A stretch of 46,411 bases of DNA from a virus (taxonomy: Duplodnaviria; Caudoviricetes), in the IMG/VR virus record IMGVR_UViG_3300037461_001781, positions 1-46,411 of that record. One strand, given 5' to 3'. This document shows positions 30,246-35,012 of this stretch, in pieces. Each line of letters opens with the position of its first letter. Position 1 is the stretch's first letter. Position numbers and translations under genes: made by a program. The notes under the pieces were generated by a model, which was given only the letters and a program-made list of their open reading frames with translations, made no database searches and was not told where the DNA came from.

Positions 30246-30273
30246 ATTATAACATAAATTAATAGGAAATCAA
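30246..30273 (-). promoter_or_regulatory. Sigma70-like promoter with extended -10
   Basis: TTGATT (30273-30268), 16-nt spacer, TGt-TATAAT (30251-30246). Confidence 0.55.
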
Positions 30274-30307: not shown

Positions 30308-31129
30308 TTAGTTATCTGCAGTAAGTTCTAAAATAGCCTGAGCTGCTAAATTCTTTACCTTATCGTAGATACCATTTGATTGAACAAATGACCAATCATG
30401 AATACTCAAATCCGGGCCAAGGCTCTTTAATTCTTCAACAAAATCAAACTCAGAAACACGTTCATCCTCCATTTCAGGCATTGCTAGTGCACATAAGCCA
30501 GTAACCCTAGAATTAATTTCAACCCTTTTTTCAAGATTTTCAAAATTCTCTTTATAAGGCTGCTCATGTTTTACGGGAGTAACCGGATCTCTGACCTTTG
30601 CAGTAAGATTATACAAAAGCTGCTCAGCAGAATCAATTTCCTCCTCTATAGTAGTACCATTAGATGCTGCAGCCCCTTCATAATAATTAATAAAATCTTC
30701 CTCCTCTAACAATACCAAAATTTGAGGTCTTCTCATCAAAAGCTTCCTAAAATCCGTGCTGTACTTAATAGACTCAAACGGTAAATGTGATGTTAGATTA
30801 TAAGGTTTTCTCGTATTGGGTAGTGTTATAAACTCTTTTTGCCCGCCGTTCATAAAACTCAGTGAAATCTGCGTGCCACCAACATTTTGAATAAAAACCT
30901 CTCTTTCAGACTTAAAATAATTTGTAAAATTATTGTACGTATTTTTCCTCTGTGTGATTTTAGCCATGTCGAAACACCTTTCTCCCTCTAATAGTTTGAT
31001 CATAAAGGGGTTTTTGTTAAAAACAAGAGCTTTGCCTTTTTTGATTAAAATCCGAGCTTTGGCGGGATTTGTGCTAGAAATAAACCTGTTATATTGATCT
31101 AAAACAGGAACTAGAACATCTTTAGACAT
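30308..31129 (-). CDS. Protein with N-terminal PLMP/RRXRR (IscB N-terminal-like) domain fused to an unknown domain; 273 aa from ATG 31129
   Basis: VPVLDQYNRFISSTNPAKARILIKKGKALVFNKNPFMIKL matches the VxVLD...P(A)xARxLLKxGKAxV....PFxIxL pattern; GGAGGT SD; no RuvC/HNH motifs downstream. Confidence 0.75.
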   Translation of the reverse strand: MSKDVLVPVLDQYNRFISSTNPAKARILIKKGKALVFNKNPFMIKLLEGERCFDMAKITQRKNTYNNFTNYFKSEREVFIQNVGGTQISLSFMNGGQKEFITLPNTRKPYNLTSHLPFESIKYSTDFRKLLMRRPQILVLLEEEDFINYYEGAAASNGTTIEEEIDSAEQLLYNLTAKVRDPVTPVKHEQPYKENFENLEKRVEINSRVTGLCALAMPEMEDERVSEFDFVEELKSLGPDLSIHDWSFVQSNGIYDKVKNLAAQAILELTADN

Positions 31130-31160
31130 AGCTCTCGCTAACCTCCTCAAAAATAGAGGG

Positions 31161-31198
31161 TAAAAATTAGTAAGGGGTTGTGTGCAACCCCTTACTAA
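31161..31198 (-). terminator. Intrinsic terminator after the major capsid gene
   Basis: Perfect 14-bp inverted repeat TTAGTAAGGGGTTG / CAACCCCTTACTAA (31167-31198), 4-nt loop, then TTTTT on the minus strand. Confidence 0.85.
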
Positions 31199-31208
31199 AA
31201 ATAATTAA

Positions 31209-32387
31209 TTATTTTTGCCCTTTTGCAACAGCTTTAGCATTAGGCAAACCAAAACCGATCATTTCAATGAACGCCCAACCTTTTACGAATTCTTTAACTG
31301 CATACTTATTATAAGGTTCAGATTGAAGCGGGATTCTTTCACCCAATTCGCCCAAATAATCCGGACCTGTAACGGCATAAAAAGTACCAGCAGGGATAAC
31401 TTCTTCCACACCAGTTCCAGCAGATGTAATAATTTGAGCATTAAGAATGTTACCAATATAACCAGCCAACAATAGTTCTCGCTCAGTAACCGGGTCAACC
31501 GCAGAAGACATGGTTTTCACGATGTCGCTAACTTCAGCACGAGAAATTAGGAATTTCTCGACGATCAAACGATGTCTCTCAACTTGAAAACGAACATCCT
31601 CAAATGCCCCAATTTCAAGACTTGCAAAAGAAGTAACGCTATTTACTGCGCTAGAAGCTCTATCTATCAGATTTATACCTGCCCGATCTTCTTGAAGTTC
31701 AATTTCCTGTCTTGCAGTGTCTTGCGCCCTTTCAAGAACATCAAAATTCATTTGATAGATATCCTGAATATCAATTGTCGGCATAGACGAAACTTTAAAC
31801 TCTTCCGGAGTAATCCATGTGGTTTTAATTCTTGCTTCTGGAGTTTGACCATCCTGGCCAATAACATAAGCAACACTTCGAATATCTTTAGGAATCCTAA
31901 AAAGTTCAGCTTGACTAAGTTTTCTAACTCTAAAGACTTTTCGCATAAAACCTTCATAATCAAGAATAACCTTAATCGGAAGCGCTAGTTGCTGACCAAT
32001 GACATGCATGCCATGACCACTTGGGTCTTGCAAAGCCGCCGATAGAACACGTCGTTGCTCATCCCGAGTAAATCTACTATCAGGATTATACATGGACAGT
32101 TTATTTGCATTCTTTTTTGTAGTCGCAAAAAGATGTTGAATTTGTTGAAGAGCGTCTTTTTTGTCATAAGCATTTAGCTCTCCCTTATCATCAAACATCC
32201 TTCGGTCTTCAGCTCTACTAGCTTCTTTCGAAGAAGGAGCATCATAAGCTTGAGGGTTAAATTCGCCGGATTCATCAAAGATAGCTTCGTCTTGCTTTTC
32301 TTCAAGATGCGTCTTAGGTCTTGCAGCCAAGCGTCTTGACGCACTCTGTGCATTGGTTATTTTTCTGTATGGATTTTGATAACTCAT
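31209..32387 (-). CDS. Major capsid protein, HK97 fold (392 aa)
   Basis: IGQQLALPIKVILDYEGFMRKV, PEEFKVSSMPTIDIQDI...DVLERAQDTARQEIELQED motifs; follows protease/scaffold/decoration genes; AGGAG SD; strong terminator after. Confidence 0.85.
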   Translation of the reverse strand: MSYQNPYRKITNAQSASRRLAARPKTHLEEKQDEAIFDESGEFNPQAYDAPSSKEASRAEDRRMFDDKGELNAYDKKDALQQIQHLFATTKKNANKLSMYNPDSRFTRDEQRRVLSAALQDPSGHGMHVIGQQLALPIKVILDYEGFMRKVFRVRKLSQAELFRIPKDIRSVAYVIGQDGQTPEARIKTTWITPEEFKVSSMPTIDIQDIYQMNFDVLERAQDTARQEIELQEDRAGINLIDRASSAVNSVTSFASLEIGAFEDVRFQVERHRLIVEKFLISRAEVSDIVKTMSSAVDPVTERELLLAGYIGNILNAQIITSAGTGVEEVIPAGTFYAVTGPDYLGELGERIPLQSEPYNKYAVKEFVKGWAFIEMIGFGLPNAKAVAKGQK

Positions 32388-33149: not shown

Positions 33150-35012
33150 TTACGCTCCTTTTCTAGAATTAACATTTAAAAGCCTTTTAGCTCTTTTAGC
33201 CAAAAATGTGTTATTAATAGCTAATTCCGAATCATCAGTGTTATCGCTATTAAACTCGGAGATATCAACTCCAAAATCTGATTTAATTGAAAAATTACCT
33301 TCTTTTGCTACCTTTTTTAATTCTTCACTCCTTTTAGACTTTTTCCTTTGCAAATCAACCTCAACTGGTTTAGTAGAAACATTTTCGAGGTCTGATTCCA
33401 AGTCAACTAAATATTCATCACTCTTTTTCATTAATGAATGAGTTCTCTCTAAAATAAGATTAACAAATGCATCATGACCAATTTGTGCTATCCGCTCTGT
33501 AAGTTCAACTGCGTCTCTCTCCTCCATACCAGCATATTCAACTCCATCTGAAAACCTCAGAGAGTTGTCAACCAATATATCAACAGCAGCAGCTTTAAAT
33601 GGGTGCTCATCATAATTTAGCTCCATCCGCTTAGCCGCCAGTTTAAAAGCTCTAATAAATTTTTTTATAAAAACGTCAACAGCGTCTTTCGCCATCTTTT
33701 CAGCACGGTTAGCATACAATCTCTGATAATAAATAGAAGCTTCTTTAAAGTTTACCTCAGAATCAGAAAGAACATCCTCTTCTTGTTTATCTATTTTCTC
33801 TTCTGTTACAACACCCTCAGCCCCACCAATTGAATCAATAAGTTTCTTTTTCTCTAAAGCAATTTCATCGTCAACATCATCTAACACGCTTTCAGAAGGA
33901 GCATCTGGTTGTTCTTCAGCGCTAATAAACATATCATCAGAAACATCGGATTTAAGATCCTCGATAGGCTCCTTTATTACATCCTCTGCCCACTCAGTCA
34001 CTGGCTTTTTTGCTTCTTCAATTTTTTCATCAAAATTTACAATAACATCAGAATCTGCACCACCAACAAGAGCAGCACCAAATTTTAATGCAGCAGATTT
34101 AAAACCATCATATATAATATGCCCGTAAACCTTATTAGCAAATCTTCTTAAGTTATTTGCACTCTCTCTATCTTTATTTTTTGGAGTAGCAAGAAATACT
34201 AATTTTCCATCATAATAAGCTAAAATATCTTTATTTGCAGTTATTTTAACTTTTACTTTAGCTGCAAGATAAGGCTCTTTAATTCCCATGTTAATATCCA
34301 ACTTTCCTTCATCTAAAGAATCATTTTCAGATAATTTATCTTTCAAGGAAGAAAGATCTTCTTCAAATTCCTCATTAGATTCTTTTTCCAATAAATCCAA
34401 CTTATTATCTAACTTCTTCTTTTCAGGAATAATATCCAACTCTTTTTTTTCTTTTAAATCAACTTTATCTTTTACTTCTGGTTTTTTACCAAAGCCTATT
34501 TCTGGCTTATCTTCTGGTTTTTTACCAAAGCCTATTTCTGGCTTATCTTCTGGTTTTTTATCAAAGCCTATTTCTGGCTTATCTTCTGGTTTTTTATCAA
34601 AGCCCTTTTCTGGCTTATCTTCTGGTTTTTTATCAAAGCCCTTTTCTGGCTTATCCGAAAAAATGTCAGACTTTCCAAAACCATGACTACCAGCAGAATC
34701 ATCCTTTAAATCAACAACATCCGGACCTACAGCACCTAAACCATCCTCTTTATTAGGCAGCACCCCACTATCCTTTAAAAACGATAAAATCATAGAAAAA
34801 GCTTCGTCTGGGTTTTCAGCAGATTTTAATTTTGACAAAAAATCCTCAAAACCTTTCGGAATAGGTTCAGCTTTTTTAGAGGAAAAAGAACTATTTAACA
34901 GAGATCTCGTCTCAGCTTCTATAATATCTTTTTCTTCAGCAGTAAGCGAAAGAGCCCCTTTATTATGAATGTCCATAACTGTTTTAAACAAATCAATTTT
35001 TTCTATTTTCAT
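33150..35012 (-). CDS. Acidic scaffold / head assembly protein (620 aa)
   Basis: D/E/K-rich low-complexity protein between protease and decoration/MCP. Confidence 0.6.
   Translation of the reverse strand: MKIEKIDLFKTVMDIHNKGALSLTAEEKDIIEAETRSLLNSSFSSKKAEPIPKGFEDFLSKLKSAENPDEAFSMILSFLKDSGVLPNKEDGLGAVGPDVVDLKDDSAGSHGFGKSDIFSDKPEKGFDKKPEDKPEKGFDKKPEDKPEIGFDKKPEDKPEIGFGKKPEDKPEIGFGKKPEVKDKVDLKEKKELDIIPEKKKLDNKLDLLEKESNEEFEEDLSSLKDKLSENDSLDEGKLDINMGIKEPYLAAKVKVKITANKDILAYYDGKLVFLATPKNKDRESANNLRRFANKVYGHIIYDGFKSAALKFGAALVGGADSDVIVNFDEKIEEAKKPVTEWAEDVIKEPIEDLKSDVSDDMFISAEEQPDAPSESVLDDVDDEIALEKKKLIDSIGGAEGVVTEEKIDKQEEDVLSDSEVNFKEASIYYQRLYANRAEKMAKDAVDVFIKKFIRAFKLAAKRMELNYDEHPFKAAAVDILVDNSLRFSDGVEYAGMEERDAVELTERIAQIGHDAFVNLILERTHSLMKKSDEYLVDLESDLENVSTKPVEVDLQRKKSKRSEELKKVAKEGNFSIKSDFGVDISEFNSDNTDDSELAINNTFLAKRAKRLLNVNSRKGA
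34476..34655. repeat. Tandem repeat, 5 x 36 bp, in frame (DKPE[K/I]GF[D/G]KKPE)
   Basis: Unit ttctggttttttaycaaagccywtttctggcttatc repeated five times with no spacers. Confidence 0.95.

Follow-up and report, generated by a model that had tools for sequence, protein, structure and literature searches.

A nuclease-free PLMP domain kept in a phage gene behind the major capsid gene, and a conserved hairpin that may serve as its translational operator

The closest described relatives of the domain considered here belong to the OMEGA nucleases IscB and IsrB. According to the passages of PMC9640706 that deal with the domain, the contacts of PLMP with its hairpin are mainly sequence-independent, while the PLMP motif touches the RuvC domain, on which the PLMP domain packs. 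For IsrB, the corresponding part of PMC9581776 describes a PLMP domain that stabilises the base of the terminal, Shine-Dalgarno (SD)-containing hairpin of the omegaRNA, and notes a likeness of PLMP to the N-terminal domain of IF3. A review, in its passage on the last omegaRNA loop, names PLMP as possibly involved in termination there (PMC10734217).

The PLMP domain and the gene that carries it

The window analysed here, i.e., the whole stretch of DNA, is a 46-kb virus record that is about 26% complete and contains a single RRXRR match; all features described below lie on its minus strand. The match falls in a gene directly after the major head gene. The latter (31209..32387; 392 aa; phrog_2522, E 4.5e-60) is upstream and codirectional, its stop being separated from the ATG of the PLMP-bearing gene by only 79 nt, and its product shows 57% identity to the capsid protein of Virus Rctr197k and 25-32% to those of PaBG, RSL1, Motura and phage G. 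From its ATG the PLMP-bearing gene (30308..31129) specifies a 273-aa long isoform, beginning MSKDVL, in which the PLMP domain is followed by a linker and a two-domain phage protein. A TTG further upstream, at 31150, was dismissed as the start because it lies inside hairpin A (see below) and homologues align from the ATG. Behind the gene, a sigma70-like promoter match for the next gene (30246..30273; 10/12 with TG, a consensus match only) means that downstream genes may not need read-through in the window, though such a site is present in only 10 of 48 loci. The 620-aa gene between the protease and the capsid region encodes tandem KPEDKPE-type peptide repeats (34400-34600 of the window, minus strand) and is scaffold-like by position. 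The sequencing runs best covering the stretch are wetland metagenomes; an RNA run (X5, share 0.06) contributes a single 151-nt contig, within the capsid gene only, and a search of GTDB genomes with a narrow alignment found no relative.

The original prediction had assigned the N-terminus to the PLMP (RRXRR) family from a peptide that corresponds to residues 7-46 (30992..31111). This assignment is borne out by the profile search, in which residues 7-49 match PF14239 with an E value of 4.5e-8 and scores of 33.6 and 37.3 bits against a cut-off of 25, the match covering only profile positions 1-43 of 174. It is likewise borne out by structure prediction: in the AlphaFold model of the 273-aa protein (mean pLDDT 79.5), VIA-align places residues 5-59 onto residues 1-51 of TbaIscB with a Z of 8.2, an rmsd of 1.5 Å and 45% identity, the top four rows being IscB/IsrB and the structural overlap stopping at residue 60. 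The nine best rows of a Foldseek search against the PDB are also IscB/IsrB, none of them at E≤0.001, and IF3 is weakly present in the same list at ranks 10, 19 and 27. As had been claimed, RuvC, HNH and bridge-helix regions were found by none of the Pfam, sequence or fold searches, and a Pfam HNH match is absent both from the protein and from 34 aligned short forms of the family. The literal P-L-M-P residues are indeed replaced, aligning here to F-I-S-S; across 41 loci F-L-S-Y is the commonest form at this position, and partial proline-bearing forms occur in L023 and L135. This decay of the motif may reflect the absence of its RuvC contact partner. The basic helix of the domain is kept, with R26 present in 41/41 loci. 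The gene belongs to the PLMP domain family without being an IscB, IsrB, IshB or OMEGA system.

All 15 near homologues (the protein itself included) among 625 candidates are full-length and carry PF14239. In a wider search, with PLMP called at 20 bits or more, at least 87 clusters have the domain and at least 57 lack it among the 150 listed of 154 50%-clusters. The 57 database proteins without PLMP were not taken as true losses, since some arise through start calling: P0090, called as lacking the domain, maps to a locus that holds it in frame, and P0018, called likewise, clusters with a 283-aa member. Counted by distinct related phage loci, 47 of 50 have an in-frame PLMP domain and three (L061, L152 and L154) are PLMP-less. 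The fetched set comprised 62 rows, two of which start inside the gene, and the domain is in frame in 59 of the other 60, duplicates included; of 42 further loci, the 13 analysed were those on new contigs together with one repeat of L061. Over 16 disjoint pairs, pN/pS is 0.24 for the PLMP domain and 0.25 for the next domain as opposed to 0.57 for the linker, and the corresponding mean identities (41 loci) are 0.50, 0.50 and 0.20. Since the PLMP domain is under purifying selection, it is probably translated and maintained. The domain's in-frame presence across these loci and its selection like that of the next domain led to the rejection of a one-off IscB scar, and retention of PLMP without nuclease, and probably without transposon, is supported across a phage family; in the window, a record only 26% complete, there was no transposase among 28 ORFs (Pfam) and 34 (PHROGs). 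Synteny around the PLMP-bearing gene is conserved. When a tree is built from the C-terminal part, one of the PLMP-less loci branches off outside all others on a long branch and the other two are placed among PLMP-bearing loci at an unresolved fork, a topology that would fit a single gain of PLMP followed by later losses without proving them.

Hairpins between the capsid gene and the first start

The perfect 14-bp hairpin that had been predicted about 40 nt upstream of the gene is present 37 nt from the ATG, as an intrinsic-terminator-like hairpin (14 bp, loop of 4) with a U tract (31162..31198); the hairpin with its U tail at 31198-31167 has a z of -7.86 (0/200 shuffles). It had been cast as the omegaRNA-like partner of the domain, a role that comparison does not support, as its stems differ in sequence among relatives and a terminator-like hairpin also stands behind the capsid gene in the PLMP-less L061, L152 and L154. 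The terminator hairpin is probably not the PLMP target. Further, a conserved site transcribed before the termination point, as an antiterminator would use, was not found, the conserved element of these leaders lying 3' of the U-tract, where transcription would reach it only by reading through the terminator.

In nine loci of this clade (L001:4916, L003:1066, L007:2616, L009:576, L010:1450, L012:2898, L015:1610, L016:2911 and L018:2035) the terminator loop carries the anti-SD word CCTCCTTT, which is absent from the window and could pair with the SD or with the hairpin 3' arm; L004 (1095-1600) has a 559-nt gap after the capsid gene with a tRNA-like stretch and the same word. Rfam models run over the window gave nothing at gathering score and no HEARO at E≤10, and the best weak match, L20_leader (25.6 bits vs 58.7), was rejected as being driven by the terminator.

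What tracks the PLMP domain, on the comparison of leader sequences, is hairpin A, which is absent along with the domain in 3/3 PLMP-less loci, three having been found. It has the form AC-stem-AG, stands just 3' of the U-tract and is usually followed by a second hairpin. The original prediction mentions neither these two smaller hairpins nor the internal start and the internal hairpin copy described below. In this phage hairpin A, the putative operator 1 (31143..31161), consists of AC at 31161-60, a stem of only 4 bp at 31159-56/31148-45 and AG at 31144-43, its 3' arm overlapping the SD of the first start; hairpin B (31129..31140), of 4 bp with a GNRA-type loop, ends on the A of the start codon and shows covariation at 2/4 pairs in 11 leaders. 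The original descriptor of the pair, derived from these leaders, retrieves A+B in 28/38 leaders vs 4/219 other genes and 1.7% of shuffles. Applied unchanged to nine held-out PLMP-bearing loci, it retrieves A in seven and A+B in four, and it matches 0/3 PLMP-less loci. With a strict descriptor tuned afterwards (200 nt, C-G closing pair), which like the first was derived from these data, hairpin A is found in 39/47 PLMP-bearing leaders and missing from 8/47, and it is found in 0/3 PLMP-less loci, 0/4 outgroup loci and 7/281 other genes. Over 24 model-aligned matches, three of them outside leaders, 86% of the cells are paired and 42 show two-sided change (0/500 shuffles), in an alignment that is biased towards the model. 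The flanking AC and AG, both unpaired, are conserved as well. Folded on their own, the small hairpins A and B of this phage (z -0.70 and -0.05) do no better than shuffles.

In most loci hairpin A lies 43-98 nt past the capsid stop, its distance to the start ranging from 6 to 141 nt, with 99-141 nt in four L045-type loci; among the 15 loci of this phage's clade that have the leader hairpin, all but one place the AG 13-20 nt ahead of the first start. Where genes have come to lie between the capsid and PLMP genes, as in L048, L053, L135 and L149, hairpin A stays with the PLMP gene. In L034 (806-2500) about 1.6 kb of extra genes separate hairpins A+B, beside the terminator, from the PLMP gene, which keeps its internal hairpin. 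The leaders of L045, L047, L048, L049, L053 and L055 are longer and have four or five hairpins, one of them a second bulged hairpin that ends in AG-GU; these leaders may preserve more of an omegaRNA-like 3' end.

Two starts, an internal hairpin copy and their possible regulation

An internal SD-like site with an in-frame ATG at 30967 (Met55; 30965..30980) would give a short isoform of 219 aa (30308..30967), made up of a beta-rich domain, a helical linker and a small helical bundle, and matching the outgroup proteins in size. An in-frame ATG is found in the linker of 38/38 distinct loci tested (13.2 expected) and a linker methionine in 82/87 proteins (35 expected). Pairing with the anti-SD averages -8.3 kcal/mol for the internal start as compared with -5.6 for the first and -3.2 for coding controls, the best-scoring candidate start being taken each time.

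As to what the short form may do, Pfam yields no family common to more than 2/34 of its members. Sequence searches gave no solved relative, Foldseek no match and the Atlas no usable match; the best VIA Z is 6.5, on generic helical bundles that barely cover the beta-rich part. From gene position only, a role in head assembly or as a virion accessory seems the likeliest. The 14 virion bands at Coomassie level given in section 3.2 and Table 1 of PMC7412058 do not include its distant homologue PaBG gp154, which may still be a minor virion protein. L109 (Erwinia phage Y3 gp225), a protein of 588 aa annotated as 'inverse autotransporter beta-barrel domain', starts with the short form's beta-rich domain, which may be an anchoring module.

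A second copy of hairpin A, the putative operator 2 (30982..31011; AC 31011-10, stem 31009-03/30990-84, AG 30983-82), lies within the last codons of the PLMP domain, 14 nt before the internal ATG. Over both strands of the whole window the strict descriptor has four matches, two of which are those before the two starts. With a relaxed internal descriptor (at least 5 pairs) devised after the window's internal match had been seen, the copy is found in 15/44 loci vs 4.0 expected from synonymous recoding, as compared with 3/200 coding windows and 0/19 IscB controls. All 15 loci belong to this phage's clade, which is supported in the C-terminal tree except that L020, outside that tree, was added by similarity. 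Taking one locus per near-identical set, the copy is present in 12/13 vs 2.8 expected, a count inflated by shared descent. Its covariation is modest, with 81% paired, 5/500 shuffles and three two-sided changes in a set of eight in-register sequences that leaves out the window and two other offset loci. The AG stands 14-17 nt before the internal start, a spacing that matches the first start, and the 3' arm could be a spare SD. The SD proper is outside the internal hairpin and is predicted to be more open than the first SD in 35/48 loci. In L143 and L144 (as also in P0073 and P0112) two PLMP-like domains stand in tandem before the internal start, scoring 35.4 and 19.3 bits in L143 and 35.8 and a partial 12.9 bits in L144, and neither of these two loci has a strict hairpin A.

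These sequence patterns make hairpin-linked control of the gene's own translation, one of the options of the original prediction, probable, and in this clade a conserved hairpin is found at the regulated ribosome-binding site, as would be expected of an autorepressor. The more specific reading, to which we give about an even chance, is that the long PLMP-bearing product binds the AC-stem-AG hairpin before each start and represses both products at the level of translation. An mRNA with two in-frame starts would arise by read-through of the capsid terminator, and the short form, with the stronger SD, would be its bulk product. The minor long form would grip the base of each hairpin, as the IsrB PLMP does on the terminal omegaRNA hairpin, and there hinder 30S loading and lower initiation, the sign of the regulation being assumed. 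Such negative feedback would limit how much post-capsid protein a very abundant late mRNA could yield. A tentative extension, which we doubt more than we believe, is that PLMP and AC-stem-AG form a portable, self-contained module for translational feedback, possibly predating its use by IscB/IsrB, that these phages employ it as an isoform switch in which the minor, N-terminally extended product governs both starts, and that one clade carries a second operator in the codons of the domain itself.

Several other readings bear on the same observations. One, which we regard as unlikely, is that the long form serves as a tether, docking on the read-through mRNA so that the protein is localised or co-assembled, or the RNA is protected or brought into the head. 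A fusion would suit a tether better than pure repression, and the hairpin's usual distance from the capsid stop, set beside its wide range of distances to the start, together with its having stayed by the terminator in L034, speaks for a site placed relative to the capsid gene. However, the internal start is preceded by the second copy at the same spacing, and in the four loci with intervening genes hairpin A goes with the PLMP gene.

It is quite improbable that the sign of regulation is positive, the SDs being freed when the hairpins are opened by binding or by ribosomes coming from the first start, with PLMP perhaps touching the 30S subunit. The weak IF3 rows in Foldseek and the IF3 likeness noted in the relevant part of PMC9581776 would agree with this, but the same part has the IsrB domain stabilising the hairpin base. 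Similarly, hairpin A covers the first SD in this phage and ribosomes coming from upstream would run into the internal hairpin, yet the internal SD is outside that hairpin and the more open of the two in most loci.

We think it very improbable that the domain is a relic, i.e., a protein module that no longer binds RNA, with the hairpins dampening initiation in cis only. Weak hairpins near starts are common attenuators, and the PLMP motif itself has been replaced; against this stand the conservation of the AC/AG flanks and of R26 in 41/41 loci, and the joint absence of domain and hairpin in 3/3 loci. Finally, the model first put forward, in which binding of the domain to the hairpin of the capsid terminator adjusts read-through downstream, can be given hardly any credence, for adjacency in most loci and the possible termination role mentioned in the review passage (PMC10734217) are countered by terminator-like hairpins of varying sequence in 3/3 loci without PLMP, by a conserved, co-varying element that lies past the U-tract and by the promoter-like site of the next gene in this phage (10/48 loci).

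Relation to omegaRNA systems and other regulators

The leader hairpins were compared with the 3' end of omegaRNA. A PLMP pattern retrieved 38 loci, from which length and motifs singled out 17 distinct IscB/IsrB loci with sufficient upstream sequence. A strict AC-stem-AG within 100 nt occurs in 4/17 of these leaders vs 4/281 controls, and is missing from the other 13/17. HEARO was found eight times among 20 pattern-match loci scanned, its model ending just before the terminal hairpins, and in one IscB/IsrB locus the AC-stem-AG starts where the Rfam HEARO model ends. A covariance model built from the phage leaders gave 12 non-significant matches over 28 loci, five of them just upstream of IscB starts, with E values of 0.34-7.8 on IscB loci. 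Homology of the phage hairpins to the omegaRNA 3' end is thus likely, if short of proof, as the same layout recurs in 4/17 leaders but the model matches are non-significant. Weak leader-like matches of the model (11 bits, not significant) also fall inside an IscB coding region, at L065:1968-2013 and L077:1035-1080. In a tree of 41 residues IscB/IsrB stand apart from the phage PLMPs with a support of 0.81; because this tree is unrooted and the IscB set was chosen by motif, no direction of origin is claimed, for or against the pre-IscB context that the original prediction offered as an alternative.

The literature searched, mostly outside subscription papers, contained no paper on a nuclease-free PLMP fusion or on its second hairpin, and this reuse of PLMP is real and conserved, and apparently undescribed. 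In parting the domain from its nuclease, the phage family suggests a minimal partnership between a hairpin of about 20-35 nt with AC/AG flanks and a 40-aa domain, which makes the idea of autoregulation directly testable. If true, an OMEGA part would have been domesticated as an mRNA regulator and could supply a very small protein-RNA tether pair, while control of two isoforms by one gene, through an operator duplicated within its coding sequence, would be unusual.

With IscB/IsrB and omegaRNA the phage locus shares the PLMP fold and sequence pattern and, apparently, tandem hairpins directly before the start. It differs in that the gene has no RuvC, bridge helix, HNH, guide or omegaRNA body, and in that its protein has the PLMP residues replaced, a fusion partner with an internal start and a second hairpin in the coding sequence. 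IshB, as outlined in the review (PMC10734217), combines PLMP with HNH and likewise has PLMP without RuvC, whereas the phage protein has no HNH match and its partner is a vertically kept phage gene. The TldR proteins, which the passages concerned in PMC13565253 present as domesticated TnpB repressors, are comparable in keeping an OMEGA component for regulation without cleavage; however, TldR retains the whole protein and guide RNA and acts on DNA, whereas the phage retains only a 40-aa domain and a short hairpin, with its own mRNA as the predicted target. The phrog_17686 proteins (PaBG gp154, Erwinia Y3 gp226, RSL1 ORF299 and Motura) are distant homologues of the short form but have PLMP or the hairpin in 0/4 cases and are not beside the capsid gene, those of PaBG and Y3 being near primase/resolvase genes. 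MS2 coat protein, T4 gp43 and gp32 and the proteins acting on ribosomal-protein leaders are translational autorepressors on hairpin operators. The predicted logic here is that of these examples, a protein on a hairpin near the ribosome-binding site; the fold is unrelated to theirs, and the part of repressor would fall to a minor isoform, extended at its N-terminus, of the very gene that is regulated.
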